Shown here: positions 1-60,496 of the stretch, piece by piece | Layout: each line of letters starts with the position of its first letter | Position numbering within the stretch: the first letter of the stretch is position 1 | Sequence record: NC_019524.2 | Reading direction: 5' to 3' (one strand) | Origin: Hafnia phage Enc34 | DNA length: 60,496 nt | Position numbers and translations under genes: made by a program | Notes under the pieces: model-generated | The model's database searches: none | Seen by the model: the letters and a program-made list of their open reading frames with translations, nothing else | Told to the model about the DNA's origin: nothing

Positions 1-224
1 GGTGCGCAGAGCCGCGTTCTCGGAAATTGCGCCGAATTCCTCATAGCCCCGCTTTCAAAATCAACGACTTACGCATAAAACGCGATTTCCCCCGTAGGGG
101 AGAACGGTCTGGAGGGGGATCGGTGGGGTGTGGGGTAAATGGGTATTAGCCCCGCATTCGCTTTTAATATCATACACTTATCCATGTGGGTTGGGGCGAT
201 CTCTTTGCCAAGATTACCAGTAGC

Positions 225-3599: not shown

Positions 3600-3634
3600 T
3601 TGACGGGCAGATCGGCATCGCCCATAATCCATCT
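3600..3634 (+). promoter_or_regulatory. sigma70-like promoter (TTGACG-17 nt-CATAAT) for the rightward replication operon
   Basis: TTGACG at 3600-3605, a 17-nt spacer and CATAAT. It lies upstream of the 3681 gene in a divergent intergenic region. Confidence 0.5.
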
Positions 3635-3680
3635 CGTCAACACGACAACCTACTTAAACAACCGAACGGAGCAACAAATT

Positions 3681-4055: not shown

Positions 4056-4072
4056 TCGCCTAAACGGTATTG

Positions 4073-4099
4073 CGGCTCCCTCCGGGGGGCCGTTTTTCT
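4073..4099 (+). terminator. intrinsic terminator-like hairpin plus T-tract
   Basis: CGGCTCCC tccg GGGGGCCG followed by TTTTT. Confidence 0.45.
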
Positions 4100-4110
4100 C
4101 AGAGGTAGCT

Positions 4111-4434
4111 ATGAAAAAATTTCCTAAATTCAGCGTTATGACGGCGGGCGGAATGATCCCTGTAGTCACTTTTTCTGAATTCAGCCGTAACATCGGCGGT
4201 CTTGAGGTTCTTTTCAGAGTTACTTCGCCACTCAGCCCAAGCGTTGGAGCGTTAGTGTTAACCCACGTCGAAACAACGCGGCTAGTCGGTAAGGTGGAGT
4301 TTCTAGACATCGCGAAGACACGCGATAGCCTATTCGTAAATAATTATGAAAAGGCCGGGAATAGAGTTTTGAACCGAATATTAAGGGACGTTGGAGATGA
4401 TAGATTCGTCAAAGCCGTCAAAAGGTACTCGTAA
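4111..4434 (+). CDS. hypothetical protein (about 107 aa)
   Basis: ATG with an AGAGGTAGCT RBS. It overlaps the start of the downstream nuclease gene. Confidence 0.4.
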   Translation: MKKFPKFSVMTAGGMIPVVTFSEFSRNIGGLEVLFRVTSPLSPSVGALVLTHVETTRLVGKVEFLDIAKTRDSLFVNNYEKAGNRVLNRILRDVGDDRFVKAVKRYS

Positions 4435-5776
4435 AAGAAGTAAATCCCTGCTAACGCGGGTTATGCGAGAATTCGGATTTGGCAATCACTCCATTTTTGC
4501 CCCATCTGGATCGGCAATGTGGTTGGCCTGTTCTGGCAGCTTAATTGCCAATCTGTTCGAAGATGATGAAACGAGTTACGAGGCTGCAGAGGGCACCGTC
4601 GCTCACTCCATCGCAGAGCAGTGGTTAAAAACGGACAAACGACCTAACCATCTGGTCGGTACCACGATTAGCCTAACGGAGAATGGCGTTACGCATGACA
4701 TTTTAGTCACGCGCACAATGCTGGACTACCTGCAGGATTATGTCGACTGGTGCCGATTTGAAGAAGGGGAAATGTTCGTAGAGATAAAGGTTTGGTTCAC
4801 CGATTTGATGCCCCGGGCCAACCCGGACGCGCCAGACGAAGAACCCGAACCGTTCGTAAGGCAAGGCGGTACGGCGGACAACATCATCATTCGTGATCGC
4901 GTCCTGATCATTACCGACTTGAAGTACGGCGCGGGCGTTCAGGTCTTTGCAGAAGGTAATACCCAAGCATTGATTTACGCCTACGGAGCATGGAAAGCGT
5001 TTTGTGATGATTACGAGTTTGACCGGATAATCATACGAATCGCGCAGCCCCGGTTTGAACATTTCGACGTTTGGGAAGTTACCATCGACGAACTGCTAGA
5101 CTTTGCACGATATGTGAAAGAACGAGCAGCCGCAGCATGGCAGATTAAAGCGCCACGCAAAGCGACCTTAAAGGGTTGTCGTTGGTGCCGGGCAGCGCAG
5201 GATTGTTCAGCGATTGCCTATCTCATGGAATGTGCGGTCGGCGGCGATACGTACTTTCTGGATCAGGAATTCGGAGAGGACGAGATGAATGAGTTGCGAA
5301 GGGCGTTAGCGGAAGAGTATAAGATCCGCAGAGCGCAATTCGGAAACCTGACAACGGTTGAGATGGCAAAAATCCTCCCATACCGTAAAGTCATTGAGAA
5401 CTGGTTTGCCCGACTTGATTTCGAGTTGGAAAGCCGGGCACTCAAAGGCGAGAAGGTTCCCGGACAGAAGTTGGTGGAGTCCAGAACCAATAGGCAATTT
5501 AAAGATGCCGCAGAAGCACGCGAACATCTTTTATTCCTTGGCCTAACGGAAGAAGACATCACGATTTCTAAGATGATTTCCCCGGCGCAGGCCGAAGACA
5601 TCATCCGTGAGAAAATGGGAGTAAAGCGAGCCAATATTCCCGACTTAATAGCTAGTCAAGTCTTTAAGCCAGACGGAAAGCCTACCTTGGCCCCGCTGAC
5701 GGATAAGCGTCTACCAATCGACGGCAAATATAACGGTGCCTACGATGACGAAGACGAAGATGACGACGAAGTGTAA
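4397..5776 (+). CDS. PD-(D/E)XK (RecB/Cas4-like) nuclease with a C-terminal Cys cluster
   Basis: D...ITDLKYG motif and a CRWCRAAQDC cysteine cluster. Ends DEDEDDDEV. Confidence 0.6.
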   Translation: MIDSSKPSKGTRKRSKSLLTRVMREFGFGNHSIFAPSGSAMWLACSGSLIANLFEDDETSYEAAEGTVAHSIAEQWLKTDKRPNHLVGTTISLTENGVTHDILVTRTMLDYLQDYVDWCRFEEGEMFVEIKVWFTDLMPRANPDAPDEEPEPFVRQGGTADNIIIRDRVLIITDLKYGAGVQVFAEGNTQALIYAYGAWKAFCDDYEFDRIIIRIAQPRFEHFDVWEVTIDELLDFARYVKERAAAAWQIKAPRKATLKGCRWCRAAQDCSAIAYLMECAVGGDTYFLDQEFGEDEMNELRRALAEEYKIRRAQFGNLTTVEMAKILPYRKVIENWFARLDFELESRALKGEKVPGQKLVESRTNRQFKDAAEAREHLLFLGLTEEDITISKMISPAQAEDIIREKMGVKRANIPDLIASQVFKPDGKPTLAPLTDKRLPIDGKYNGAYDDEDEDDDEV

Positions 5777-5817: not shown

Positions 5818-6420
5818 ATGGCAGAGAAATTAGTCCCAGCTAAAAAAGTGAAGAACGGTGTCCTGTATAAATCTGGTCACATTAAGGTTTCAAACGTCCG
5901 TTGTTCATACCCGCATCTGGATAAGCCGTATGGAGGCGAAGACGGTGGTGAACCGAAGTATTCAATCACCCTGTTAATGCCAAAAGATACTCATGGCGCT
6001 ATCAAAAAGATCATTGATGAGCAGATTGAGTTGACTAAGAAGAACCACAAGACAGGAGCACTGAAAGTGGCCCCGTCCATGTTGTTCATCAAAGACGGTG
6101 ATGTCGATTTCCCTGACAAACCAGAATGCGAAGGGATGTGGGTAATTTCTGCGCGTGAAAGCACGCGTCCTGATGTCCTGAACATGGAGCGCGAAGAACT
6201 GGAAAGCCCTAACGAGATCGCGGAAGAGATCTACGGTGGTTGTTGGGTTTCTAGCGTTATTCGTCCATGGTCGCAGGAAAATAAATATGGCAAACGAATC
6301 AACGCCAACTTACTTTCTGTTCTGAAACGCAAAGACGACGAGCCATTCGGTGAAGGTCGTGTCGACACGTCTGATGCGTATGACGAAGATGAAGACGAGT
6401 GGGACGAAGACGAAGTTTAA
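5818..6420 (+). CDS. single-stranded DNA-binding protein, T7 gp2.5-like
   Basis: N-terminal pattern YPHLDKPY...KYSITLLMPKD resembles the gp2.5 OB-fold region. Long acidic C-terminal tail ending DEDEWDEDEV. Confidence 0.6.
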   Translation: MAEKLVPAKKVKNGVLYKSGHIKVSNVRCSYPHLDKPYGGEDGGEPKYSITLLMPKDTHGAIKKIIDEQIELTKKNHKTGALKVAPSMLFIKDGDVDFPDKPECEGMWVISARESTRPDVLNMEREELESPNEIAEEIYGGCWVSSVIRPWSQENKYGKRINANLLSVLKRKDDEPFGEGRVDTSDAYDEDEDEWDEDEV

Positions 6421-8809: not shown

Positions 8810-10334
8810 GGCAATCGCGGCAAGCCGTCGCAACGTTCAGTTGGAACGCGGTGATATGCATAGCTACCAGAATGAAGGTGTACAGTTCATAAAAGACCAT
8901 CCATTCTGCGCACTTTTCGTCGACCTTGGGCTAGGTAAGTCCGTTATGTCGGCAACTGCAGCACTTGATTTAATCGTGGAAGATGAGATTAAAAAGGTAC
9001 TCATCATTGGCCCGTCCCGCGTAATTCAGGCGGGGTGGCCTAACGAATTTAGTGAATGGGGGCACCTATGCTTCTACCACATGCAGGTTATCGCCGGGAC
9101 AGCGAAAGAACGACTGCGAGCGCTGCAGACGGATTGCCATTTCTACACGGTTAGCCGTGACAACATCGGTTGGCTGGTCGAGCACTACAAGACTAAATGG
9201 CCTTTCGACATGGTGATCATTGATGAGTCCAGTAACTTCAAGTCCCACACGTCACAGCGCTTCAAGTTGCTTCGCCGCGTGCGGAAATACATGACGCGAT
9301 TAGTGGAGTTAACGGCGACCCCGGCAGCAGAAGGTTACATGGGCATCTTCGCGCAGACGTACTTGTTAGACGGCGGCGACAGGTTCGGGCAAGCGATAAC
9401 GAAATACCAAGAGAACTATTTCATACAGAACCGCTATAACTTCAAATTCAAACTCCGTGACGGTGCGGAAAAAGAGATAACTCGCAAGATTTCTGATATA
9501 TGTTTAGTTATGAAAGCCGTTGACTACCTCGACATGGGTGAGCCACATTTTATCCGGGTTCCGGTGCCGATGGATCGGGAGACATCCGACCTATACGCGG
9601 TGATGGAAGAAGAGAGCGTCATGCAAGTCCTGCCGCCTGACTTTGATGAATATCTGGATGACCCGATAGTCATTGAGGCAGAGCAAGCGGCATCGCTGCA
9701 GGCCAAGTTGATGCAGATTGCCAGCGGCTTCGTTTATGACACTAAAATTGTTGGCCTGACTGCCGATGATAAGGTGATTAAGCAGAAAGACTGCTACCGA
9801 CTGCATGAACTGAAACTGGACGCGCTTGACGAGTTGATGAATAACGAGTTAGCCGATAAGAACGTTCTGATCGCCTATCACTTCCAGTCAACACTTGAGC
9901 GCTTCCAATCCCGGTTCCCGAAAGCGGTATTGATGGACAAAGAAGGTAAGTGCATCAAGAAGTGGAATGACGGAAAGATTAAGATGTTGGCAGCTCACCC
10001 GCAGTCAGCAGGGTATGGCCTGAACCTTCAAAGGGGTGGTCATGTGATTGTCTACCTAGACCATCCGTGGTCATTGGAACAGTTCTTACAGTTCAACGGT
10101 CGCATTCACCGCCAAGGCCAGAAAGAACCTGTACGAATTTACCAACTGTGCGCCACGCTGACGACGCCAAACGGTTCACAGGCGGAAACGGTCGACGATA
10201 CGGTCATAAAGGCGCTACGGGACAAAGAGGACGTACAGGATGCGTTCTTTGAACTGTTAGAAAGACTACGCGGCAAGTATGCCAAGAAACGTAAAACTAA
10301 AAAATCGGTGATATGGGATGACGAAGAAGATTGA
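8772..10334 (+). CDS. SNF2/DEAD-like helicase
   Basis: DLGLGKS Walker A, DESS motif II, QxxGR motif VI. Confidence 0.8.
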   Translation: MKTLKSSLSPLCKAIAASRRNVQLERGDMHSYQNEGVQFIKDHPFCALFVDLGLGKSVMSATAALDLIVEDEIKKVLIIGPSRVIQAGWPNEFSEWGHLCFYHMQVIAGTAKERLRALQTDCHFYTVSRDNIGWLVEHYKTKWPFDMVIIDESSNFKSHTSQRFKLLRRVRKYMTRLVELTATPAAEGYMGIFAQTYLLDGGDRFGQAITKYQENYFIQNRYNFKFKLRDGAEKEITRKISDICLVMKAVDYLDMGEPHFIRVPVPMDRETSDLYAVMEEESVMQVLPPDFDEYLDDPIVIEAEQAASLQAKLMQIASGFVYDTKIVGLTADDKVIKQKDCYRLHELKLDALDELMNNELADKNVLIAYHFQSTLERFQSRFPKAVLMDKEGKCIKKWNDGKIKMLAAHPQSAGYGLNLQRGGHVIVYLDHPWSLEQFLQFNGRIHRQGQKEPVRIYQLCATLTTPNGSQAETVDDTVIKALRDKEDVQDAFFELLERLRGKYAKKRKTKKSVIWDDEED

Positions 10335-10893
10335 TGCACCAATTGCGGCAGGAAGACGCCGCTCTAATGCCCCGGACGCAGATACCGAGGCCATGATTTT
10401 CCAAGGCTGCAATATCACGCAGATAGCCAAGCTGTTTCGCATGGAGCGCCGGGACATCACGCCGAAGATTATGGATGTGCCGCCGATTGGTGAACGTGGT
10501 GGCTATCCGATCTACGCGGTGCATGAGGTGGCCCCGTACTTAGTCAAACCGCTGTACGACGTAGAAACGTATCTGCGTCGTATGAATTTTAAGGATCTGC
10601 CGAAAGAGTTGTCGAAAGAGTTTTGGGCGGGCCAACGAGCCAAGCAGGACTTTGACATCAAGGCCGGAAACCTTTGGGAGACAGAAGACATCATTTCCCA
10701 TTTTGGTGAGGCGGTTAAGATCCTGCGCATGTCACTTCTGCTGATCCCGGATACGCTGGCGCGTCAGGCCGGGCTAACAGAAGCACAACGATCAGCCACA
10801 CAGTCTGCAATCGACGGCATTCTGAACGACTTAACAGATGCGCTTGTCGACCGATTCAAAGAAGACAAAGAGGCCGATGACGATGAAGTTTAA
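10318..10893 (+). CDS. terminase small subunit (putative)
   Basis: Lies immediately upstream of TerL and overlaps it. HTH-like N-terminal region. Ends ADDDEV. Confidence 0.5.
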   Translation: MTKKIDAPIAAGRRRSNAPDADTEAMIFQGCNITQIAKLFRMERRDITPKIMDVPPIGERGGYPIYAVHEVAPYLVKPLYDVETYLRRMNFKDLPKELSKEFWAGQRAKQDFDIKAGNLWETEDIISHFGEAVKILRMSLLLIPDTLARQAGLTEAQRSATQSAIDGILNDLTDALVDRFKEDKEADDDEV

Positions 10894-44696: not shown

Positions 44697-44725
44697 ATAT
44701 TAGCTGTACACGTCGCGTGTGTCAA
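44697..44725 (-). promoter_or_regulatory. conserved-spacer sigma70-like promoter (leftward)
   Basis: Minus-strand TTGACA, then ACGCGACGTGTACAGC spacer context, then TAATAT. It is one of six promoters in this family. Confidence 0.55.
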
Positions 44726-44941: not shown

Positions 44942-45985
44942 TTATACCTCGTTATCTTCGTCGTGGCGTTTAAGCCAGATTAACATTCCGGCAGTATAAT
45001 TGATTGCGCCGTACAACTCCCTTTCCTGCTGTTCAACGGTCGGCATATTTAGCGCCTCGGTGACTTTCTTGACTACCTGATAGGCCATGCCGCTGACCGA
45101 ACCTACTTGGTCGCTGATCACCTGCATACGTTGGCTTTCAAATGGATCGTCATTCGCGTGGCGCTCGCGACCCTTGCCATACGCGGCTTGATGTAGCGCA
45201 CCGAAAAGCACATCGCATAGTGACTGGTAGTTTTTCAGGTCGCGCGGGCTTGCAAACTCATACGACACGACCGGGCCATCGGGTTGCGCCATCGACGCAT
45301 ATTCAGATAATTCCTTAATCTTATCTAGTATCTGGCCCGCCGTAGTAGTGCCGCGATCCATGGATAGATAGTCACAAATGTCTTCTCGTAGACCACTCTT
45401 AGATTTCGACCCCGGCCCGAACCCCGTCATACTCCAATCATGGTGGTTAGCGAACATGAGATAGTTCATGGCATCCACGTAATTCCCCGCCCGGATGTGC
45501 TCACGGATACTCTGTTTACAACGACCCTCCCAATTTTCTGCCATCCATGCCAGTGGTGGGCGACCGTGCTCCCCATTAGCCAACGCTTTCAGCATTTCCG
45601 CTGCAGTGACCAAGAATAGCGAGAGTGTTTCGGAGTGCAGATGCGGCGCATCTTTAAGTAATTCTCGGTGGAATTTATAACTGGTATAGCAATCGGATAC
45701 GATGCCGGGTAGTTGGTGGTCTGGAACACTTTCAAAGGAGTCTTGTGCTGCCTCCACCGCAGCCATCCCAAGGGCTGAACGGATTTGAGAAAGTGTAACC
45801 TTCTGTTCTAAAGACGTTTTGTACATCTTCCTGATGTGGTCACATGCCGCCTGTGGTGGGACAACGCCAGTAATGCCGAGGTCATGGCGCAATGCTTCAA
45901 ATGCGTTAATCACATCAAGTGTAGGTGTTGCAGAGACAAGGCCGTCAACTTCGCCCGCGACCTTGGTGTAGGATTTACTAGTCAT
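44942..45985 (-). CDS. hypothetical 347-aa protein ending DEDNEV
   Basis: ATG preceded by GGGAG. Acidic EV C-terminus. Confidence 0.5.
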   Translation of the reverse strand: MTSKSYTKVAGEVDGLVSATPTLDVINAFEALRHDLGITGVVPPQAACDHIRKMYKTSLEQKVTLSQIRSALGMAAVEAAQDSFESVPDHQLPGIVSDCYTSYKFHRELLKDAPHLHSETLSLFLVTAAEMLKALANGEHGRPPLAWMAENWEGRCKQSIREHIRAGNYVDAMNYLMFANHHDWSMTGFGPGSKSKSGLREDICDYLSMDRGTTTAGQILDKIKELSEYASMAQPDGPVVSYEFASPRDLKNYQSLCDVLFGALHQAAYGKGRERHANDDPFESQRMQVISDQVGSVSGMAYQVVKKVTEALNMPTVEQQERELYGAINYTAGMLIWLKRHDEDNEV

Positions 45986-49729: not shown

Positions 49730-49758
49730 TCTTAGGTGTACACGTCACGTATGTCAAA
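49730..49758 (-). promoter_or_regulatory. conserved-spacer sigma70-like promoter (leftward)
   Basis: Minus-strand TTGACA-TACGTGACGTGTACACC-TAAGAT. Confidence 0.55.
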
Positions 49759-50177: not shown

Positions 50178-50444
50178 CTAGCGTGCCTCTGTATTTCCGG
50201 TTGCTGCCACGGTACCGTAGTCTGCCTGACGCATGACGCGGGTACCCATTTTCCCGTAGATCTGGTCTTCCAAGACGAACCGAATTGATAAGCGGATATT
50301 GAGTTTATACCCAAGGCGGCGGACGTACTTTAAGTCGCTAGGCTTGACACCTTCGATAAAGAACGACTCGCCTACCTTCATTTCTGACATCAGCTTTTCA
50401 TGCTTGGCCTTGTAATCCTCAGTCGTTGGGGTTGCCATCATCAC
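50178..50444 (-). CDS. hypothetical protein
   Basis: 88 aa. Confidence 0.4.
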   Translation of the reverse strand: MMMATPTTEDYKAKHEKLMSEMKVGESFFIEGVKPSDLKYVRRLGYKLNIRLSIRFVLEDQIYGKMGTRVMRQADYGTVAATGNTEAR

Positions 50445-51508
50445 ACCTCGTCATCTTCTTCGAGTGAGCCAGTGATCTCCGCCAGCATACTCACATCGTT
50501 AAAGCGGGCCATAAGCGCGGATAGGCTCTTATCCATCATGAACAGGTTAGCCATAAGCGTGAGGAAACTCGCCCCGTCGTTCTGGTAGTTCTCAAGCGTG
50601 GCATCATAGTTAGCGTCGACGTCCGCATCACCGATGTGGATACCCGTCAGGATGGCTTTGTCTGTCAGGCGGAAGAACATGTTTTCCAGACCTGCAGTCT
50701 TCAATGCGACCGCCATATCCAACGCACGCGGTGTATAGGACTGCGAGATCAGCTCATCGACATGTTCGTTCCCTAAGATGGCGACGTCTTTAAATTTAAC
50801 GTCCTCGCCGTCGTCATGCTTCATGTGAACGAAGTCAGTCGCGTTAAACTCATTGTGCTCACGGCGGATAACCTGACGCATGAACAGGCGCAGTGAATAC
50901 TCATCAATCAGCGCATGTTCGACCGGGAAGGTGCCGAATGCTTTACGGATCAGCGCGGTGCAGTTCTCGCCAACCTTGGCGCTTGAGGTGAACACATAGA
51001 CATACGGCATTGAGATTAACACCGGGATGCGGTTCGGGCGGATAGGCGCGAATTTCAGCATTTCCGCTTCGACTTCTTCTTTCAGTTGCGCCCAATCTTT
51101 GCGGGTCGGCGTCCATCCATCCACTTCTTTCGCGATTAGCTTTTCCATGCGCTTAGTCACGGCGTTGCGTACCGATACGCCCGGCAGCACACGTTCACGC
51201 TTCTCAATCTGGATCAGGAAAGCGGTGGTGCCCGGCACCTGCAGACAGAATGAATTGTTTAACTCATCGCCGTTCGCCACAAATCCCATGGTGCTGTAAC
51301 ACGCTTCCGGTGGGTCGCTCACTTCTAGCTCGGACAGCGCATTAGATAGGGTGGTGCTGGCAAACTTAAACGCCGCTTCTTCTGACATGTTCGGGGAGTT
51401 GAGCAGCATACGCAGCAGCGGAGTTATAGTCTCTTCGCCATCGTTGGCCTTGTCGTACAGTGATCCCAAGTGCAGCGGGATTAGCTTTTCAAAGTTTTTT
51501 ACTTTCAT
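50441..51508 (-). CDS. RdgC-like recombination-associated protein
   Basis: Collinear similarity to RdgC (KRERVLPGVSVRNAVTKRMEKL, SSAKVGENCTALIRKAFGTFPV). Ends EEDDEV. Confidence 0.55.
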   Translation of the reverse strand: MKVKNFEKLIPLHLGSLYDKANDGEETITPLLRMLLNSPNMSEEAAFKFASTTLSNALSELEVSDPPEACYSTMGFVANGDELNNSFCLQVPGTTAFLIQIEKRERVLPGVSVRNAVTKRMEKLIAKEVDGWTPTRKDWAQLKEEVEAEMLKFAPIRPNRIPVLISMPYVYVFTSSAKVGENCTALIRKAFGTFPVEHALIDEYSLRLFMRQVIRREHNEFNATDFVHMKHDDGEDVKFKDVAILGNEHVDELISQSYTPRALDMAVALKTAGLENMFFRLTDKAILTGIHIGDADVDANYDATLENYQNDGASFLTLMANLFMMDKSLSALMARFNDVSMLAEITGSLEEDDEV

Positions 51509-51860
51509 TGCGGATTGCCTCAATGTTGATTAGGTCAGTTAGGTGGCCTTTGAACTGGCTAAGGCTCACATGGATAAGGGCACAGCGGATGTTCTCACGC
51601 GCGGCCTGAATGGATGCCAACGTCTGCGCTTGATTGCGGCTCAACGCGTCGTACTTCCCGGTGAGATCTTCGGTTGGGTCGATTTGCTCTGCCATACGCG
51701 GCATTAAATCGTTGAACGCGGCTTCGTAGTAGTCGGTTGCATCCTTTTCCAAATCGTTTAGCCATGCTTCCAGTGCCGTAAACTTCGACAAGCCTTGATC
51801 TAAACGTACATAGCGCAGTTCGCGGTTCTCTGCGTCGAGTGTAGATATGCGCTTGGTCAT
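51489..51860 (-). CDS. hypothetical coiled-coil protein
   Basis: 123 aa. Confidence 0.4.
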   Translation of the reverse strand: MTKRISTLDAENRELRYVRLDQGLSKFTALEAWLNDLEKDATDYYEAAFNDLMPRMAEQIDPTEDLTGKYDALSRNQAQTLASIQAARENIRCALIHVSLSQFKGHLTDLINIEAIRNESKKL

Positions 51861-52708: not shown

Positions 52709-53092
52709 TTACACTTCGTCGTCGTCGTCCACGCCAGCTTCAAGGCATGTGACCACAACCTGAATGAACATACGGCCTGACGGGTAGGTGATCAGCGCGG
52801 ACTCCATGCTGAACTTCTGCCCATGGTGGCGCATGGCATTGCGGATGGATGAGTTAAGGCTGGAACGGATCTTGGACTTCAAACCATTGGCATCGGCCTG
52901 TGCCTGCGCAAGTGTGACGTCGCCTGCCATCTCAAGTGATAGCGTGTACACTTCGCCCGGCTTCAACGCGATGAGGTTCCCGGCTACGCTGTGTGGGCGG
53001 ACGCGTGATGGCAGTTCAACGTCAGACTCGCACGTCATCATTGCTGCCGTAAGGTTGTCAGGGTATGGCTGATTGGTAGTCTTTGTAGTCAT
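52709..53092 (-). CDS. small protein ending DDDDEV (first gene of the leftward early operon)
   Basis: ATG at 53092 with an AGGAG RBS, directly downstream of the 53137 promoter. Confidence 0.5.
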   Translation of the reverse strand: MTTKTTNQPYPDNLTAAMMTCESDVELPSRVRPHSVAGNLIALKPGEVYTLSLEMAGDVTLAQAQADANGLKSKIRSSLNSSIRNAMRHHGQKFSMESALITYPSGRMFIQVVVTCLEAGVDDDDEV

Positions 53093-53136
53093 CTGGATGG
53101 CTCCTGCATTCGGTATATCTCGCATGTAATTGGCAA

Positions 53137-53165
53137 ACAATAGTGCTACATGCCGCGTATGTCAA
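53137..53165 (-). promoter_or_regulatory. conserved-spacer sigma70-like promoter (leftward)
   Basis: Minus-strand TTGACA-TACGCGGCATGTAGCAC-TATTGT. Confidence 0.55.
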
Positions 53166-53244
53166 ACTCTTTCAATTATACTCGGCTAACCTCACCAGAT
53201 TTCTTTTCCTTTATTGCCTACGCCAATCCAATCGGTATTTCGCG

Positions 53245-53440
53245 AACGACGACCTGTCAGGTTTTTCAAGTAAGCCGTGGGAAAACGACGACCTGTCAGG
53301 TTTTTGAAGTAAGCGAACGACGACCTGTCAGGTTTTTCAAGTAAGACCCGATGACCGAACCGACGACCTGCTAGGTTTTTCAAGTAAGCCGTGGGATCGG
53401 CGTTCAAAAATTTTCGACCTGCTAGGTTTTTCAAGTAAGC
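53245..53440. repeat. array of five direct repeats (iterons) of about 30 bp, CGACCTG(TC/CT)AGGTTTTT(C/G)AAGTAAGC
   Basis: Copies at about 53245, 53283, 53315, 53359 and 53411, separated by spacers of 0 to 21 bp. They lie in the 640-bp non-coding region between the divergent early promoters. Confidence 0.7.
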
Positions 53441-53752
53441 CGCGCGGGGGGTTTTTCGTTGGGGTCTGGCCTGAAATTTTTGTAGAGAGCGACGAAAATC
53501 ACGCTGAAACACGGGTTTGACGTGCTACAAGGCGAAAATCGTTATATTTCAACACTTTAAGCCACTATAGGCGGTACCAAATCGGGGTTCACTCGAAATT
53601 TTTATAGAGAATTCAATGGTTTAAGCGGGCGGCGATGACCAGGATCACGGGGCGGGATTTTGTAATGTCTTTATATATATCAACGCGTTACCCGATTTGC
53701 TTGTTTTGCGTATAGATGAAGGGGGGTTATGTTGCGGGCCTTGAAAATATGT

Positions 53753-53781
53753 TTGACATACGCGGCGTGTGTTTCTATTCT
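53753..53781 (+). promoter_or_regulatory. conserved-spacer sigma70-like promoter (rightward)
   Basis: TTGACA-TACGCGGCGTGTGTTTC-TATTCT, upstream of the 53830 operon. Confidence 0.55.
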
Positions 53782-53829
53782 GTAGTTCAGCTTCACTACT
53801 TTAAACAACTAAACACGGGATAACACACC

Positions 53830-54981
53830 ATGACAAAGACTAACTTTTTAAACCTGCTTTCCTCTCTGCGCAGTGGCGGCGCTAAAACCTTCACGCTGAC
53901 TGTAGACGGCAACGCGGTTAACATGTTGGCGGACGGTGAACCAATCGCGGATCGTATCTATCGCGGGGCAAACGTGGCGCGGGAACACGACCGCATGAAA
54001 CGCTGGTTAGGTGTATGGATGTATGAGAACCCGATCCCTGTTATCAAAACAACGGATCAGGAAATGACCGCAATCAAAGCGGCGGACGCAAAAACGGCGG
54101 ACGTGTTAACGGTTGGTTTCCGTTATTATCGTTTCGATACCAGCTATGACGACGAATCCCGCGCCTATCAGGATTTATGCGCGGATGTTCGCCAGCGCAA
54201 CGGCGGATCATATATTGCCCGCCAGACGTTAGGATCATGGAATCCGTCAAAAGAGTCACAAGCGTTTCATTCTGCGTTGCAGGTTTACGGGCTGAATAAT
54301 ACGACGATTGATATTGATACAACGCATCTATTTAAAGACCAATTTAACACGCCGAAAGGGGTTGTTACTGCTAACGGTATCCGCGTTTATTTGTGGGCTG
54401 AATATTCATACCCTAACGCGGCGATTAAAGAAGGTTATTTTTTAATAGATGATCAGAACATTCTAAAAAATCGCTTGGCTACTACATATAATTGCGGTTA
54501 TTGCGGCGCTCAATATCCAGAAGCGAAAGCGGCGGCGCTTAATTATTGCTGTGATTCATGTATTTCTAGCCCGCTATTAAAGCTAGACCATCTTCACATG
54601 CTTAAATTAATCCCGATGATCGACGGGAATAAAAAACGCGCTTTCGATGCTGATCAGTTGGCGCAAGTTAAAGACGCGGTTATTAGTGCGCAACTTCAAG
54701 CCACACAAAAGCGGGCGGCGGCGTACTTCCCTAAAAAACTTGAAGAGTTAAAGGCCAACCATGAGAAAGCGCTTAAACATTTAAACCATGAATTTAACGC
54801 TATGCAATGGTTGTTAAATCACAATATCAGTATTGAGGACGTAATTTATTACAACCATAGAAATCTGCTTTCGTTCGGGTGGCGCGGTGATGGCATGGAA
54901 CCGGAAAAGGCGGAAAAGTTAAAAGCGCTTTTAAACGGTTTTCCTTTTGAGTATGAGATTGTTACTAAGGGAGCAAAATAA
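53830..54981 (+). CDS. hypothetical 383-aa early protein with a Cys cluster
   Basis: CGYCG...CCDSC pattern. First gene of the AT-richer rightward block. Confidence 0.5.
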   Translation: MTKTNFLNLLSSLRSGGAKTFTLTVDGNAVNMLADGEPIADRIYRGANVAREHDRMKRWLGVWMYENPIPVIKTTDQEMTAIKAADAKTADVLTVGFRYYRFDTSYDDESRAYQDLCADVRQRNGGSYIARQTLGSWNPSKESQAFHSALQVYGLNNTTIDIDTTHLFKDQFNTPKGVVTANGIRVYLWAEYSYPNAAIKEGYFLIDDQNILKNRLATTYNCGYCGAQYPEAKAAALNYCCDSCISSPLLKLDHLHMLKLIPMIDGNKKRAFDADQLAQVKDAVISAQLQATQKRAAAYFPKKLEELKANHEKALKHLNHEFNAMQWLLNHNISIEDVIYYNHRNLLSFGWRGDGMEPEKAEKLKALLNGFPFEYEIVTKGAK

Positions 54982-55301
54982 TGACTGTTAAATATATTTC
55001 TCATGGCACTTGTCATTTTGTATCACTGGCGGCGGCGGTGCGTTATTACGGCACAAAAGAAACCGTTAATCATAAAATCAGTGAGGGGGAGATCCGCGTG
55101 GGGTACCCTGATGTTAAAGAAGGCGATAAGGTATCTATTAATGATGAAGGCCGCTATTTTATCAAGCGCCTTGATCCTAGCAGTGTAAAACATTACGACA
55201 CGTTTGATCAGGCAATGGAAGCTAACCCTAACGGGATTTTCACCGCTACCATTATCCGCCAGATGATCCGCCGTGGCGAAATTGTAATTAAATCGGCTTA
55301 A
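54981..55301 (+). CDS. hypothetical protein
   Basis: TAATG coupling to the upstream gene. Confidence 0.45.
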   Translation: MTVKYISHGTCHFVSLAAAVRYYGTKETVNHKISEGEIRVGYPDVKEGDKVSINDEGRYFIKRLDPSSVKHYDTFDQAMEANPNGIFTATIIRQMIRRGEIVIKSA

Positions 55302-55316
55302 ACTAGGGCGCACACC

Positions 55317-55520
55317 ATGCTTTATTTAATAATGTTTATCGGTTATTCAATAATTGCGGTTTATATCGCGCATGATGTGCGCCACGTTTTAAACCGCTGC
55401 AAAGTGGAGCGCCGTTATTCTTTTGGAAAGCGTGTTATTTATCTGCGCGAAAAGAAAACAGGCCGCTTGATTGGTTGCTCCAATAATTTTTTCACTCTTT
55501 TATTACAAGGTACTAAATAA
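55317..55520 (+). CDS. small membrane protein
   Basis: N-terminal hydrophobic helix. Confidence 0.4.
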   Translation: MLYLIMFIGYSIIAVYIAHDVRHVLNRCKVERRYSFGKRVIYLREKKTGRLIGCSNNFFTLLLQGTK

Positions 55521-55987
55521 TGACTCTCTCAATTAATAAAGAACGCGCTTTATATTTCAATAACGGATCATGCATTGGCTTTACTTATGCTGATAGCCGC
55601 GCCCGTGCCGTTTTAGAATGGTTAAAGTCTCAAGGCCGATCCGCTGAAATGCTTTTAGGTGCGAACGGTGTAGACCTGCAATCGCTATCCGTTCCCGCTC
55701 GTATGGGTACCAAAAAGCATTATGCAGCGTGTGACGCGATCATGCGTGCGGGGCTTATGTTCGCATCACATAGCGGGGAAGTATGCAACGCAGATCTAAC
55801 GCCGCAATTAATCGGCCTTGAAGGTAAACGGGTTCGGGTCATTGATTCATACGGGGCGGATCGCCGTTTCACGGTTGGTAAATCTTGCGGGTGGCTGCCT
55901 TGCCACCTTGAGATGGGTTTGCGTACCAGTAAAGGCGGGATCGCGGTTTGCGGCGCCCCATTCAAATCAATTGAGGTGATCGGCTAA
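55520..55987 (+). CDS. hypothetical protein
   Basis: 155 aa, coupled to its neighbours. Confidence 0.45.
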   Translation: MTLSINKERALYFNNGSCIGFTYADSRARAVLEWLKSQGRSAEMLLGANGVDLQSLSVPARMGTKKHYAACDAIMRAGLMFASHSGEVCNADLTPQLIGLEGKRVRVIDSYGADRRFTVGKSCGWLPCHLEMGLRTSKGGIAVCGAPFKSIEVIG

Positions 55988-56172
55988 TGGCTAGTAAAAC
56001 TTATGGCGTGGTTGGCAGTAATTCCGGTTACGTAGACACAAGCCGCACGTTAAAAGGCGCTAAACAACACGCCACGCGCAACGGTTACACGGCGGTTTAT
56101 TGTCGACCAAATAACGGCTATCACGTTTATCAGGTGGCGCGTCGTATTAACGGTAAATGGATTAATTTATAA
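55987..56172 (+). CDS. hypothetical small protein
   Basis: 61 aa, basic. Confidence 0.35.
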   Translation: MASKTYGVVGSNSGYVDTSRTLKGAKQHATRNGYTAVYCRPNNGYHVYQVARRINGKWINL

Positions 56173-56183
56173 GGGGTAGTCTT

Positions 56184-56531
56184 ATGTCTAAATATATCGC
56201 TTTATCTAACATCCTTAAATCGGCAAACGTCGCACACCTTGAAACTGATCGTTATACCGTGGACGTTAACGGCTATCGAGGGGCGGACGGTTGGATCGTG
56301 TTCCAATTGGCTAACGGTGATGTATTACGCCGCCGTGCCAATTTTGATGCTACTTGCGGGCAATCCTGCTTTTATTGGGTACGCGTGGCGGGCGTTCTCT
56401 ATCTGGTTGACTACCTGATCGACGCCACCAGCTTTACGCCTGCTGAATGGTCATCTATAGATCAGGCTGAGTTTTTCAAAACAGGCCGTAAAGTGATAAG
56501 CGTAGAGGGGGCGGATCATGCTACCGCTTAA
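56184..56531 (+). CDS. hypothetical protein
   Basis: 115 aa. Confidence 0.4.
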   Translation: MSKYIALSNILKSANVAHLETDRYTVDVNGYRGADGWIVFQLANGDVLRRRANFDATCGQSCFYWVRVAGVLYLVDYLIDATSFTPAEWSSIDQAEFFKTGRKVISVEGADHATA

Positions 56532-56919
56532 ACTTTTCTGTGAGTATGCCGCCGCGCTTGTGGATGGCATGATCTCACACCGTCCAGATGTAAGCACTAC
56601 ATACGACGACGGCAACGGATCAGCGGCTGGGGATGTTTTGGCGCTTATCCTCACGCCTGCTTTTGTTGTTGAGTTTGAGGACTTGATCAGCGATTGCGTC
56701 CTAGAAGTGCCAAAGGTTGAAATATTATTCCATCTAGGCGGGGCTGTGGTCGATTCCGTGGATTGCGTGGGTTGTTGTTGGACTATGCCAACGCCGGATC
56801 AGATTGCTTTATGGTCGATTCCTGTTTTAACCGAATACACGACCGCCACGGCGGATCGCATCACACGCTTTAATAAAAACGTTATGGGGTCATCATATGT
56901 CGAAAAAGCTAACCAGTGA
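56518..56919 (+). CDS. hypothetical protein
   Basis: 133 aa. Confidence 0.4.
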   Translation: MLPLKLFCEYAAALVDGMISHRPDVSTTYDDGNGSAAGDVLALILTPAFVVEFEDLISDCVLEVPKVEILFHLGGAVVDSVDCVGCCWTMPTPDQIALWSIPVLTEYTTATADRITRFNKNVMGSSYVEKANQ

Positions 56920-57112
56920 GGCGGCAACGGGCGCGGCTAAATTCCTAGCGTGTGGCGTGGTCATAGGTGTAATCGCGGTGTGTATCGCTTGCGGTGATGA
57001 CCTCACGCCGTATAAAGCCTTTCTCTACACCGTAGCGGGCGGCGTATGTATAACGATGTTATGGCCTACTCAAGATCAAGGCGATGCGCTGATCGAATAC
57101 TCAAAGAAATAA
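56897..57112 (+). CDS. small membrane protein
   Basis: Two hydrophobic segments. Confidence 0.4.
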   Translation: MSKKLTSEAATGAAKFLACGVVIGVIAVCIACGDDLTPYKAFLYTVAGGVCITMLWPTQDQGDALIEYSKK

Positions 57113-57130
57113 CCCACACCGCCAGACGAT

Positions 57131-57157
57131 AACGCCCCTTTAATGGGGCTTTTTGCG
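57131..57157 (+). terminator. rho-independent terminator
   Basis: AACGCCCC tttaat GGGGC followed by TTTTT. Confidence 0.6.
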
Positions 57158-57175
57158 TTATCCTGTAAAACATGT

Positions 57176-57204
57176 TTGACACACGCGGCATGTACTATTA
57201 CTCT
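57176..57204 (+). promoter_or_regulatory. conserved-spacer sigma70-like promoter (rightward)
   Basis: TTGACA-CACGCGGCATGTACTAT-TACTCT. Confidence 0.5.
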
Positions 57205-57253
57205 ATAGATCAGCTTCAATTATTTAAACTAACTAACCACGGGGTAACGCATC

Positions 57254-57916
57254 ATGGAACTACTCGCAATCAAAGAAATGTTAGCCGCTTATGAGTTAAA
57301 AGACGGCATCACGGCAACGATCACGACTTGCCCGCGCTACGGTTCACACACCGTTACTTTGCGCCGCGCGGATGGTCAATTGATTAGCCGTTATCCTGAT
57401 TATCAAGATGATTTCGAATTTTGCTTAAATCAGGATCTTAAATTCTACGGTGTGAAAGTTGCGCCCGTTGCCGTGGATATTCCCGCCACTACCGAAAAAT
57501 TAAAAGTTGGCCTAATGCGTTGTGATTTCGCAACGGATCGCGCCTATCGCGTGTATAAATGCGCGGTTAAAGTTTATTTAATCCGCACTTTGTGGCGTTT
57601 CCGTTGTGACCCTAAGATCCGCCGCGCTATTCGTTCTCATGTTATCCGCTTGCGTGATCATCGTATCGGCTTATTACAGGCTAAAAAAGCATTGGACGAA
57701 AGCGCCGCAAAAATGGCTCAGGATTTTATTAATACGCCTGTTAAATCGCCCGTAGTAGCGACATGTTTAAATAAACGCGGGGATAAGGTTTATTTAACGG
57801 CGGCGGGCTTTTGGCATCACGACATAAAAGAAGCAATGGTATTCACTGCTATACCGTCATTTAGTGATCCAATGTCTTTTTATAACACCTTAATCACATA
57901 TGAGGATGTTAAATAA
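57254..57916 (+). CDS. hypothetical 220-aa protein
   Basis: First gene after the 57176 promoter. Confidence 0.45.
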   Translation: MELLAIKEMLAAYELKDGITATITTCPRYGSHTVTLRRADGQLISRYPDYQDDFEFCLNQDLKFYGVKVAPVAVDIPATTEKLKVGLMRCDFATDRAYRVYKCAVKVYLIRTLWRFRCDPKIRRAIRSHVIRLRDHRIGLLQAKKALDESAAKMAQDFINTPVKSPVVATCLNKRGDKVYLTAAGFWHHDIKEAMVFTAIPSFSDPMSFYNTLITYEDVK

Positions 57917-58098
57917 TGGTCGTTAAAATTACCACTAACGGCGGTATGACGCTTCAAGCTAACAGCGCGGCGGTTCGGGTTATTAACGGGCGCTTTGAGG
58001 CATCATGGCTAATGCGCATTAACTTAATCGAAAATAAATTCTATTTCTTATCGGTTAACCCTGAAATGATTAAAACGGTTGAATACATCAATGGATAA
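57916..58098 (+). CDS. hypothetical small protein
   Basis: 60 aa, coupled. Confidence 0.35.
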   Translation: MVVKITTNGGMTLQANSAAVRVINGRFEASWLMRINLIENKFYFLSVNPEMIKTVEYING

Positions 58099-58351
58099 TA
58101 AAAAACTGGCAAAACAGGCCGCTATTGAGTTGGCAGCACAAAAGGCGCGGGGCGTTGCCCGTGCTCACGGCTTCAAGCCATCACGCCGCGCTAGTGGTGA
58201 ACCTTTTTACACTCGCAAAGATGCCGATATTTATCATCGTGGCGGCTTCTGGCATTTCGAAAGTTTCTTATTCTGTGAAGGTGAACGCGGCGCGATCGTA
58301 CAACGCAAAAAACACGCTGATTTAGTCGTTTTATTACGCTCAATTATTTAA
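58079..58351 (+). CDS. hypothetical protein
   Basis: 90 aa. Confidence 0.4.
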   Translation: MNTSMDNKKLAKQAAIELAAQKARGVARAHGFKPSRRASGEPFYTRKDADIYHRGGFWHFESFLFCEGERGAIVQRKKHADLVVLLRSII

Positions 58352-58360
58352 GGCGGATTT

Positions 58361-58699
58361 ATGGCGAACAAAATTGATATTAATAAACTGGTAACGGTTA
58401 AAACGGTAATTATCTCAAATCTTCACATTAACGGTGTGGATGACGGGGAAGTATTATCTAAACATCAATACTATGAATTCGAAAACGGTTCTCATGGTAT
58501 GTATTGGATTAATGGCACGGCGGGCGGTTGGATCATCCGCGTTCATGCGTGCCCGTGCTTTGTGGATGAGTTGAAACGCATAGGGTTAGCAGAAACCACA
58601 ATAGACAATATAAAGGCGCTGGCGGCGCTAGGGTTCGACGCGATTCAATTTGATTGTGATGGCGATGAAGTAGACGGTTTACACGGCACGGAATGGTGA
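58361..58699 (+). CDS. hypothetical protein
   Basis: 112 aa. Confidence 0.4.
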   Translation: MANKIDINKLVTVKTVIISNLHINGVDDGEVLSKHQYYEFENGSHGMYWINGTAGGWIIRVHACPCFVDELKRIGLAETTIDNIKALAALGFDAIQFDCDGDEVDGLHGTEW

Positions 58700-58708
58700 G
58701 GGGTATTT

Positions 58709-58897
58709 ATGTTCGCATGGTTTTTAGTGATGACGATTTGCACGGCTGGCGGTGATGCCTGCAATGATTACGTGATAGACGGCGGCTTATCATTCCGCGA
58801 TTGCCAGACGCAAGCGCTGACCGTGGCGGAAAAGGCGGATATGTTTTCCCTACGTTGCGACAAGGGCGAAATTAAAAGGGGTGATCATGAAAATTAA
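58709..58897 (+). CDS. hypothetical small Cys-containing protein
   Basis: 62 aa. Confidence 0.35.
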   Translation: MFAWFLVMTICTAGGDACNDYVIDGGLSFRDCQTQALTVAEKADMFSLRCDKGEIKRGDHEN

Positions 58898-59156
58898 GAA
58901 GGTCATAAAATACCAATACGGCGGCGTGTTGTACGATTCCGAAAAGAAAGCGATGGCAGCAAACGAGAACGATATAAACACGTTTATCAATCGCATGATT
59001 AGCAAGATTAACAGCACCGCAAAGAATGCTAATCAATACATGCCAGCGCGTGCCGAAATTGAGATAACCCAATACATTCTAGATCGCCGCGATATGCTGG
59101 CGGGTATGTTAACGCTAGATCTAGATTATCCGAATGATGGGGAAGATCATGAATAA
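58881..59156 (+). CDS. hypothetical protein
   Basis: 91 aa. Confidence 0.4.
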   Translation: MIMKIKKVIKYQYGGVLYDSEKKAMAANENDINTFINRMISKINSTAKNANQYMPARAEIEITQYILDRRDMLAGMLTLDLDYPNDGEDHE

Positions 59157-59637
59157 AGACGCGTACAGGGTATCGCGCCGCCTCATCCGTGAAAACGGGA
59201 TGTATGCGCTTCAATGGCTAACTGACGACCACGCCGCGATCATGGACGTGTTAGGCAGTCAGTTAGACGACCCACTAGAAACGCGGGCGGCTATTGTCAC
59301 ATATAGCACGCGGGCGGGGCTTGATTGTTCCGTGAGAAAAACAGCAACGCTAGATTTATTAGCACGTTTTAATGACATCAAATCAAATACTCAAAAGGTG
59401 GATTCTATGGACTGCGTAACCGAACAACCAAAAACTAAAACCGTAACCATGTACAGCGCTGGAAATTACGACGATATGCAAGAAGCCGCTGAATGCTGCG
59501 CGGTGTACACTTCAACCGTTCCCGCCGATACATCGAATGACGTGATCCTAGCGATGGCAGATCTAGCCCGCCGCGCATTAAGTGAGGCGGAAACACTTTG
59601 CGTAATGGTCGACGGCATCGAATTAGAATGGTGTTAA
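59134..59637 (+). CDS. hypothetical protein
   Basis: 167 aa. Confidence 0.4.
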   Translation: MMGKIMNKDAYRVSRRLIRENGMYALQWLTDDHAAIMDVLGSQLDDPLETRAAIVTYSTRAGLDCSVRKTATLDLLARFNDIKSNTQKVDSMDCVTEQPKTKTVTMYSAGNYDDMQEAAECCAVYTSTVPADTSNDVILAMADLARRALSEAETLCVMVDGIELEWC

Positions 59638-59649
59638 GGGGTTTTTCTT

Positions 59650-59961
59650 ATGGGTATCGTTTCACGTAAAGAGGCGGCAATAGGCGGGCGGTTGTACGTT
59701 CTGACAATTGAGACTGACACGACGGCGGGCTGTTATGGCGTTTTTGCCAGTCATCCTATATCTGGACGGCGGGAGCGTATCGGCTTAATCGGTGTGGTTC
59801 GGGCTAATGGTCAAACATGCCACACGGTCAAAACGTCACAAGGTGCCTTTCCGCGCTTTGATGGAATGGCGGGCTGTATGGTGTTTTTAATTGACCATCT
59901 AACGCAGTTTTCACGGCATGACAGGGATATATTTGTTCGTATGACCATTGGAAACGATTAG
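59650..59961 (+). CDS. hypothetical protein
   Basis: 103 aa, last gene of the rightward block. Confidence 0.4.
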   Translation: MGIVSRKEAAIGGRLYVLTIETDTTAGCYGVFASHPISGRRERIGLIGVVRANGQTCHTVKTSQGAFPRFDGMAGCMVFLIDHLTQFSRHDRDIFVRMTIGND

Positions 59962-60014
59962 GGGTTTAACGCGTCCTATAGATGGGCGCTTATACACACA
60001 CCGCGTATATTAAA

Positions 60015-60039: not shown

Positions 60040-60496
60040 GTGTCTGCGTTTTGCGCGTGTGGCGTGTGTTTTTAAGGGGGTGATTCTGGTAGGGGTGGCA
60101 TGGGGTGGTGTGATATACGCGGCGTGTGCCTTTGTGGGGTACATCACATTACGGATATAAGGCCGAAAATAAATAATGTTATGCATTGGTAGGGGGCGCG
60201 GTACCGCATAAGGGCTAGGCGTGGCGGGGGTGGCACACGCGGCATGTATCATGAGGGGCTAATCATTTAGGTGATTGGCCTTTTTTATTGCCTAGTGTGT
60301 ATTGTGGTCATACATGGGGGTTGTGTGTAGCCTTTATCCGAGCTGTACGGGCTGTGGTGCGTATATCATCGTGTAACATGAGATACCCTATTGCTTTGCG
60401 TCGTGCGGGGCGTGGCTGGCTGCTGGCGAAGAATCCCCGATCATATTTCAAAAAGGTACTTCCCCGACTATCCGACCGCCCGGGGGTGCGCAGAGC

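Follow-up and report, generated by a model that had tools for sequence, protein, structure and literature searches.

Between the two divergent early promoters of Hafnia/Enterobacter phage Enc34 lies an array of five co-oriented, two-part DNA units that recurs in related phages of other hosts. The window analyzed (NC_019524.2) is the complete linear genome of this Chi-like siphovirus of the Casjensviridae (60,496 bp). As judged from sequence, the array is a family-wide, selected element acting at the DNA level, a putative protein-binding platform that is accompanied by a consensus site for the bending protein IHF. We tentatively read this platform as a means of IHF-assisted control of the adjoining promoter from upstream. 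We favor promoter control over a replication origin, which we consider possible but less probable, because units abut promoters in two distant phages. The original prediction, made from the Enc34 sequence alone, had named a replication origin or regulatory hub; its regulatory half has gained support from units that lie upstream of promoters and in the same orientation, and its origin half has been weakened.

The array spans positions 53247–53439, with units starting at 53247, 53286, 53318, 53361, and 53412 (start-to-start distances of 39, 32, 43, and 51). The conserved 28 nt of each unit can be written CGACGACCTG[TC/CT]AGGTTTTT[C/G]AAGTAAG, that is, CGACCTG(TC/CT)AGGTTTTT(C/G)AAGTAAG, and the gaps between these 28-nt cores are 4–23 nt. 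All units are on the plus strand. Unit 1 (53247–53274) and unit 3 (53318–53345) have the same sequence, CGACGACCTGTCAGGTTTTTCAAGTAAG, composed of a box A (CCTG), a T-run, and a box B (CAAGTAAG). Unit 2 (53286–53313) is CGACGACCTGTCAGGTTTTTGAAGTAAG, unit 4 (53361–53388) is CGACGACCTGCTAGGTTTTTCAAGTAAG, and unit 5 (53412–53439) is TTTCGACCTGCTAGGTTTTTCAAGTAAG, with a conserved AAAAATTTT tract just before it. Copies 1–3 carry GTCAGG, and copies 4 and 5 carry GCTAGG. Five direct repeats with irregular short spacers, in two variants, had been described at the outset, and both statements hold. The 15-mer GGTTTTTCAAGTAAG, with up to three mismatches allowed, has seven matches in the genome, five of them in the array, against an expectation of 1.29; none of 100 shuffled sequences reached seven. 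In a repeat search, the array was the only multi-copy local repeat family found in the 60.5-kb genome.

The array is flanked by two σ70-type promoters that form a 29-nt inverted repeat and fire away from it. The leftward early promoter (53137–53165, minus strand; TTGACA-17-TATTGT) has a conserved, partly palindromic spacer, starts the DUF7609/RdgC operon, and is kept in relatives. The rightward early promoter (53753–53781, plus strand; TTGACA-17-TATTCT) has a spacer of the same family, and it is toward this promoter that the array points. These –35/–10 pairs (53165 to 53137 on the minus strand and 53753 to 53781 on the plus strand) bear out the earlier placement of the array between divergent conserved promoters. 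Promoters and terminators are predicted rather than mapped at all loci described here.

Between the last unit and the rightward promoter are two A/T boxes and three matches to the IHF consensus. The first A/T box (53473–53488, plus strand) reads GAAATTTTTGTAGAGA. The second (53595–53623, plus strand) consists of GAAATTTTTATAGAGA fused to an IHF-core-like ATTCAATGGTTTA (53611–53623, one mismatch). The two boxes contain the two copies of a second repeat, GAAATTTTT(G/A)TAGAGA (53473–53488 and 53595–53610), whose double occurrence had been noted in the original prediction. This repeat is present as described and is statistically weak when taken alone (4 of 100 shuffles reach three matches), but it is conserved in relatives. 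All array-bearing lineages inspected, those of Klebsiella phage N133 and Aeromonas phage LAh_7 among them, have an A/T box (AAATTTTTRTAGAGA; AAATTTTTRTAGAGAA) 10–35 bp past the last unit, and the combination TATAGAATTCA...GTTTA is kept in Enc34, Smarc5, Chi, and L137, an uncultured relative. The remaining IHF matches in Enc34 are an IHF-core-like site at 53547–53559 (plus strand; TTTCAACACTTTA, one mismatch to WATCAANNNNTTR) and an exact consensus at 53678–53690 (plus strand; TATCAACGCGTTA), which follows the A+T-rich patch TTTGTAATGTCTTTATATATA. Enc34 thus has one exact and two one-mismatch IHF sites.

An exact IHF consensus (WATCAANNNNTTR) also occurs 94–110 bp past the last unit in Smarc5, Utah, SP-088, SAP012, JC01, and Seifer (on the opposite strand in the last), and Chi has the consensus at the same place with one mismatch. 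In Enc34 and six other lineages, therefore, a sequence match to the IHF consensus is located between array and promoter. No IHF consensus was found at the corresponding position in PibeRecoleta, Redjac, pPM_01, or E21. Because only ~0.02 exact matches are expected by chance per region, and because the DNA between the elements is not conserved, we count the IHF site as part of the module.

The same array, in the same place and orientation, was found in Smarc5 (Serratia), Utah (E. coli), Chi, FSL SP-088, and SAP012 (Salmonella), Redjac and PibeRecoleta (Providencia), Seifer (Klebsiella), JC01 (Cronobacter), pPM_01 (Proteus), and E21. With the search pattern CCNG-N10-[C/G]AAGTAAG, arrays of two to six units were found in 56 loci, including those of Pseudomonas and Aeromonas phages, for a total of 105 distinct units; the 56 loci are redundant, since many of them overlap or repeat sequence from one and the same phage. 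When IMG/VR was scanned for pairs of adjacent units (CCNG-N10-SAAGTAAG), 30 stretches from ~26 contigs were returned, almost all of these contigs being 55–62 kb, the size of Chi-like genomes. A scan of the same database with three box B cores alone was swamped by unrelated A+T-rich repeats. One of the IMG/VR contigs (57,567 bp), probably from a Pseudomonas phage (vB_Pae-SS2019XI), has the same layout beside a DUF7609 gene. Across syntenic genomes the position of the array relative to the right genome end is fixed; in Enc34 the distance is ~7 kb (12% of the genome).

Aligned across phages, the unit is an asymmetric, two-part motif of 26 bp: box A, tCA(A/G)CC(G/T/C)GC; a variable 9–10 nt; and box B, (C/G)AAGTAAG. 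The middle 9–10 nt are usually AGGTTTTT, with GATCGGC in many Klebsiella-phage units. Positions fixed by the search pattern cannot serve as evidence of invariance. In pattern-free and relaxed searches, however, the only deviations seen in box B were AAGTAAT (Redjac and PibeRecoleta, unit 1), AAGTAAA (N133), and, in the Aeromonas phage, AAAGTAAG and AAAGTAGC. The 26-bp motif as a whole hardly changes among phages from at least eight genera of hosts, and it drifts slightly in the Aeromonas phage. The start-to-start distances between units are 49, 43, 71, and 51 in Chi, Smarc5, and L137, and 31, 167, and 45 in Klebsiella phages. In an alignment of Enc34, L137, Smarc5, and Chi, 64% of the columns in units are invariant, as compared with 67% in promoters, 25% in spacers, and 17% in other intergenic DNA. 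Purifying selection on the units is therefore as strong as that on the promoters. The array is, as described earlier, iteron-like and not CRISPR-like, nor is it made up of coding repeats.

A clue to function comes from the location of the units, which are always upstream of, and co-oriented with, a predicted promoter, and this in three genomic contexts. The first is the divergent early-promoter gap, as in Enc34, Chi, Smarc5, Redjac, SAP012, Seifer, JC01, pPM_01, and the 57,567-bp contig. The second occurs in Klebsiella phage YMC16/01/N133 (locus L164), in which a terminator is followed by three units, AAAAATTTATAGAGGA, ~190 bp of DNA, a promoter with a palindromic spacer, and a gene, all co-directional; here the array is 5.7 kb from DUF7609. 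The third is seen in Aeromonas phage LAh_7 (locus L183), in which two units and AAATTTTTGTAGA lie ~150 bp upstream of a single promoter. In all three contexts the order is the same, with units, A/T box, usually an IHF site, and a promoter firing away, in one orientation. The array is everywhere screened from predicted transcription, by a diverging promoter or, in N133 and LAh_7, an upstream terminator, while the downstream promoter fires away from it. The sites are thus located upstream of a predicted promoter, in fixed orientation and in DNA left unread by the neighboring transcription units.

Individual units also lie directly against promoters. LAh_7 has two diverged units (box B AAAGTAGC), of which the proximal one ends ~8 bp short of the TTGACA in the promoter that drives gp20. 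In N133, a single unit ends 6 bp from the –35 element of the promoter of a gp20 homologue (44% identity to LAh_7 gp20 over 59 residues, E ~1e-16). In Redjac and PibeRecoleta, unit 1 begins 5 bp from the leftward –35 element. Behind the unit-abutted promoters of N133 and LAh_7 is a family of proteins of 135/138 amino acids (L164, 7630–8037, plus strand; L183, 2065–2481, minus strand) that share the motif GSTY[VL]KF...GS[IL]R[IV]xDHxGRE; Pfam gives no match for the family, and neither Enc34 nor any of the other loci encodes a homologue.

The array does not occur in every relative. Saba (Proteus) has no unit in the 36 kb read, and its IMG/VR contig gave no match in the two-unit scan. DUF7609 is at the same divergent junction in Saba, with a promoter gap of just 246 bp, and the replication proteins are recognizably those of Enc34: primase-helicase (37% identity, residues 8–801), PolA (56%), SSB (44%), DUF2800 protein (41%), and SNF2 protein (49%). 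Phages of the JS26 type likewise have no array and keep DUF7609, and JS26 also has a primase match. By this comparison of sequences, the array is dispensable in some lineages, namely those of Saba and the JS26-type phages. The constant order of elements, together with this dispensability, fits a platform for upstream control better than it fits an essential origin.

From these features we infer that the units are putative sites of one sequence-specific protein, and that IHF bends the adjoining DNA with a transcriptional output. The protein, most likely phage-encoded, would read box A (tCArCCnGC) and box B ([C/G]AAGTAAG), whose separation is ~1.5 helical turns. Once loaded, and with both the A/T box behind the final unit and host IHF at a site ~100 bp downstream, the array would fold back on the neighboring promoter region. 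Folded in this way, it would activate or silence the adjoining early transcription units in a time-dependent manner, the rightward promoter above all. Many initiators have a dual role in transcription and replication, and it is possible that the same complex also marks a start of replication.

Several observations weigh against this model. Among the early proteins there is no cognate transcription factor to be recognized: domain searches gave no helix-turn-helix, ribbon-helix-helix, or winged-helix match except for a helix-turn-helix-like segment in a 116-amino acid protein (3159–3509) encoded beside the primase gene. No DNA-binding protein could be tied to the array, and profile-based comparison of presence and absence returned no credible candidate; the best pattern belonged to a 71-amino acid protein (56897–57112) that is a two-helix membrane protein. 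The AlphaFold model of the neighboring DUF7609 protein (predicted local distance difference test score, pLDDT, 78) has a best match in the PDB at E = 0.06, with template modeling scores of at most 0.36, and its matches to RepE54 are insignificant. Five sites over 200 bp, ~300 bp from a σ70 promoter, would be unusual for simple activation. The distance from array to promoter varies from ~110 to 400 bp, and that to the leftward promoter from 5 to 82 bp. Relaxed unit matches occur by chance about once per 12-kb locus, so that the promoter-proximal unit of N133 may be one of these. The other Enc34 promoters with the same spacer family (44708 and 49740, minus strand; 57176, plus strand) have no units. 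Finally, an iteron origin would have much the same anatomy.

That last possibility, in which the array is a replication origin or one of several and its units are iterons, is the alternative that survives best, although we consider it doubtful. The primase-helicase would assemble on the units, either by way of a winged-helix-like C-terminal domain or with DUF7609 or another protein as adaptor; IHF would introduce a bend, and the A/T boxes would melt, aided by negative supercoiling behind two diverging RNA polymerases. Enc34 encodes its own replisome, comprising a primase-helicase (Prim-Pol, PriCT_2, and DUF5906/P4-type domains), a family A polymerase, and a T7-type SSB, and this replisome needs a start site; the array is the only repeat array found in the genome. 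It contains at least three direct repeats of one asymmetric site (five in Enc34, two to six in relatives), as iterons do. Initiators of helicase superfamily 3 (SF3) use a separate DNA-binding domain to recognize short repeats in arrays; P4 α, SaPI Rep, papillomavirus E1, and AAV Rep are examples. The C-terminal region of the Enc34 primase-helicase (residues ~745–818) is predicted to have the order helix-strand-helix-helix-strand-strand, which is that of a winged helix (pLDDT 65–86). The location of the array also suits an origin, with an IHF consensus and A/T boxes adjoining it in an untranscribed gap between divergent promoters, where, as in most relatives, diverging polymerases would leave underwound DNA. 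The neighboring DUF7609 protein shares an acidic D/E-E-V tail with the primase-helicase, SSB, nuclease, and RdgC-like proteins.

Set against these features, the spacing of the units is irregular and not helically phased (39/32/43/51 in Enc34 and 49/43/71/51 in Chi, where ~21–24 bp or multiples thereof would be expected). No DnaA box (TTWTNCACA) occurs in 53096–53829, which eliminates a DnaA-dependent origin there, although a self-loading SF3 helicase would not need such boxes. No outstanding unwinding element is evident. The original prediction had AT-rich DNA following the repeats, and short 30-bp patches of 76–80% A+T do occur at ~53595 and ~53655; the region is nonetheless absent from the 12 least stable windows of the genome at 30, 60, or 100 bp, the least stable DNA being at ~230–520. 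As for a cognate initiator gene, that of the primase-helicase is ~7.6–10 kb from the array, across cos, and DUF7609, which is adjacent, has no recognizable DNA-binding fold. The Foldseek winged-helix matches of the primase C-terminus, many of them to winged-helix regulators, all have E > 0.2 (four-sequence alignment), and box B is invariant while this C-terminal region drops to 27% identity in pPM_01-type phages. Saba has no array, yet it shares the primase-helicase, PolA, SSB, DUF2800 nuclease, SNF2 helicase, and DUF7609 with Enc34; JS26-type phages lack the array as well. In N133 and LAh_7, units are found at two separate promoters and not in a divergent gap. GC skew in the Enc34 genome tracks gene orientation and carries no information on an origin.

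A stronger origin-like cluster is located 3' of the primase gene. The least stable and most A+T-rich DNA of Enc34, at ~230–520, directly follows the primase-helicase stop codon; of the eight TTTGTAAT copies in the genome, six are here, in both orientations, and they flank an A+T-rich core. Eight copies compare with 2.2 expected, and no shuffle reached eight. In Chi, GTTACAA/TTGTAAC repeats occupy the corresponding left-end place, and in Saba TCATTTTTTAACCG repeats follow the primase gene, so that the motif drifts between phages (TTTGTAAT, TTGTAAC, TTTTTTAACC). As in origins of the SaPI and P4 type, the repeats flank A+T-rich DNA just 3' of the rep or primase gene; the Enc34 locus differs from these origins in being near the left cos end, and its sequence is unrelated to that of the five-unit array. 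The cluster could be an origin of SaPI/P4-like layout or, equally, a cosB-type terminase-binding region, the latter because it is only 230–520 bp from the left cos end. With this cluster at hand, the five-unit array is no longer the sole candidate for an origin. A further TTTGTAAT copy (53659–53666) lies downstream of the array, in the A+T-rich patch that precedes the rightward promoter.

The binder of the units may instead be a γ-proteobacterial host protein, for instance a nucleoid-associated one, that is recruited or titrated near the early promoters; we regard this as unlikely. The near-constancy of box B in phages of Salmonella, Klebsiella, Proteus, Providencia, Serratia, Cronobacter, Hafnia, and probably Pseudomonas speaks for it, as neighboring phage proteins meanwhile fall to ~30% identity or below detection. 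The left-end cluster, unlike box B, drifts as expected for a site whose phage-encoded binder co-evolves with it, and loss of the array in some lineages is tolerated. By inspection, however, the motif is unlike the consensus sites of DnaA, IHF, Fis, CRP, Lrp, OmpR, CpxR, RcsB, and LexA, and unlike the σ32, σE, σ28, and σ54 promoter elements. The drift of box B to AAAGTAAG and AAAGTAGC in the Aeromonas phage and the variation of box A between lineages fit a phage-encoded binder.

Among phage proteins, DUF7609 is the closest at hand, as its gene adjoins the array in almost all array-bearing phages. DUF7609, a small α/β protein with no known fold relative, and the array might form an unrecognized pair of initiator and iterons, with the acidic tail docking the replisome and the recombination machinery. 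We give this idea little credence; DUF7609 also occurs without the array (in Saba and JS26-type phages), and its sequence has no match in the PDB. If such a pair did exist, early transcription would be coupled to the start of replication.

Equally improbable is a role in some other DNA transaction, whether as a pause or stop in stepwise genome entry, as a hot spot of recombination by the RdgC/nuclease system, or as a site resembling a centromere. The location of the array ~7 kb (12%) from the right end loosely resembles the first-step-transfer boundary of T5, its position relative to that end is fixed in syntenic genomes, the cos ends are defined, and a recombination operon adjoins. None of the features tested is specific to any of these functions, though, and the position differs in N133 and LAh_7. 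Neither partition genes nor a recombinase were found, and the link to promoters would be left unexplained. Nor does the array have the location of a cosB or pac site, being ~7 kb from the nearer cos end.

The remaining candidates can be set aside briefly. The array is judged to act at the DNA level from its unit spacings, which are not multiples of 3, from the absence of an Rfam match, and from the absence of a predicted promoter that reads into it. Coding repeats are rejected on the same spacings, and the overlapping open reading frames (53192–53512, minus strand, and 53143–53344, plus strand) are unsupported in relatives. A structured RNA is rejected in that Rfam gave no match at E ≤ 1, the array is not transcribed from any mapped or predicted promoter, and the hairpin potential of box A (ACCT..AGGT) is lost in many Chi and Seifer units. 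The array is not CRISPR-like, as had been stated from the first: spacers between the 28-nt cores are only 4–23 nt, no cas genes were recognized, Rfam gave no match, and the array is fixed in place across phages. By inspection, neither the units nor the A/T box contains an acceptable –35/–10 pair for σ70 or an alternative σ factor, and the C/G alternation sits where the key G of a –35 element would be. Iterons of plasmid origin are rejected for lack of a PLSDB match, and a layout of iterons upstream of a rep gene is rejected because lineages differ in the gene that comes first after the array.

Arrays of this general type are well known. Like the iteron origins of λ (ori), P4 (ori/crr, with its α primase-helicase), SaPIs (ori, with Rep), pSC101, and R6K (γ, with IHF), the Enc34 locus has co-oriented asymmetric sites of ~20–26 bp, an A/T-rich element, and an IHF site, and Enc34 also has a phage SF3-type primase-helicase with a possible C-terminal DNA-binding domain. 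Unlike these origins, the array has irregular spacing (31–83 bp) instead of ~22 bp, lacks DnaA boxes, shows no marked unwinding element, and has no initiator gene overlapping or directly following it. It is also missing in relatives with the same replisome, and in some relatives units are found at more than one promoter. The early operators O1–O3 of phage Mu, with their IHF site between divergent promoters, and architectures in which an upstream activating sequence (UAS) or enhancer, IHF, and a promoter are combined, resemble the array in having multiple sites upstream in untranscribed DNA. Regulatory arrays of the Mu type further share with it a conserved IHF consensus located between array and promoter, divergent early promoters, and the existence of closely related genomes that do without the element. 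In contrast to UAS-IHF architectures, the Enc34 promoters are of the σ70 rather than the σ54 type, and no repressor or activator has been linked to the array. Compared with Mu, the Enc34-type units are strictly direct repeats of a 26-bp two-part motif, and the phages that carry them are virulent, unlike temperate Mu.

Chi-like phages (Casjensviridae) are widely isolated and have been used in work on flagellar biology and phage therapy. To our knowledge, their early regulation and replication initiation are essentially unstudied. We found the array described neither in the genome announcements of Chi and Utah, nor in papers on Enc34, nor in comparative papers; a full-text motif search, which did not extend to subscription-only papers, gave no description either. 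The array offers a cheap entry point to a key early DNA-binding protein and to the early control of Chi-like phages, and it is a region to leave intact when such phages are engineered. Cloned phage origins give resistance to phage by titration (the phage-encoded resistance, or PER, effect). Likewise, the array on a multicopy plasmid could titrate its binder and confer phage resistance.

As to the genome as a whole, GGTGCGCAGAGC occurs at both ends of the window (1–12 and 60485–60496), as a 12-base cos overhang written at both ends, and the window is therefore the full linear genome. The published 12-base cohesive end of phage Chi is identical to this sequence (PMC4342425). Nucleotide matches of Enc34 to other deposited phages are weak. 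The replication module is at the left end and contains genes for the primase-helicase (568–3162, minus strand; Prim-Pol, PriCT_2, and DUF5906 domains of the P4/D5 type, SF3), the 116-amino acid protein with the helix-turn-helix-like segment, a DUF2800 nuclease, the Enc34 T7-type SSB, the family A polymerase, and an SNF2 helicase. Structural and lysis genes extend up to ~41.8 kb. The leftward early operon runs on the minus strand from 53095 down to 42053; its first gene is that of DUF7609 (52709–53095; PF24582; F418_p58), whose product ends in the acidic tail DDDDEV, and it also includes the gene for the RdgC-like protein. The rightward early operon (53830–59961, plus strand) begins with a gene for a 383-amino acid protein (53830–54981; phrog_26133) that has no assigned function and is not conserved at that position in relatives. 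The first gene 3' of the array thus varies by lineage, encoding this 383-amino acid protein in Enc34 and members of two unrelated families of ~146–200 amino acids elsewhere.

The spacer of the early promoters (family sequence TTGACAyACGyGrCrTGT) is partly palindromic (ACAyACGC/GCGTrTGT) and located between the –35 and –10 elements. Copies of the spacer family in promoters occur at 44708–44725, 49740–49757, and 53148–53165 on the minus strand and at 53753–53770 and 57176–57193 on the plus strand; three further copies in the non-coding right end (59996–60013, minus strand; 60110–60127 and 60230–60247, plus strand) have no –35 element and hence no promoter. From its sequence, the palindromic spacer resembles an operator that lies within the promoter and would be read by a dimeric regulator. 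The promoters of LAh_7 and N133 have palindromic spacers of their own (GACAC-N9-GTGTC and TAACGAATCGTTA).

Eight Enc34 proteins share an acidic C-terminal tail, composed of three to four D/E residues followed by E-V. On the minus strand, they are the primase-helicase (568–3162, ..DDEDEV), a 347-amino acid protein (44942–45985, ..DEDNEV), the RdgC-like protein (50441–51523, ..EEDDEV), and DUF7609 (52709–53095, ..DDDDEV). On the plus strand, they are a small protein (3600/3681–4055, ..GEEEEV), the DUF2800 nuclease (4391–5776, ..DDDEV), the T7-type SSB (5818–6420, ..DEDEV), and a 191-amino acid protein (10318–10893, ..DDDEV). The SNF2 helicase has the C-terminus ..WDDEED. The shared tail looks like a docking peptide for one hub protein, as are the tails of T7 gp4 and gp2.5. 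The DUF7609 tail is present in the homologues of Chi, Smarc5, PibeRecoleta, SAP012, and Seifer and absent from those of JC01, JS26, Saba, and pPM_01. At the locus of the small protein, the longest open reading frame (3696–4310, minus strand) encodes 204 amino acids of low-complexity, F-rich sequence with no family match. This frame is probably spurious, and the likelier gene is the plus-strand frame at 3600–4055, which encodes the acidic tail ..GEEEEV.

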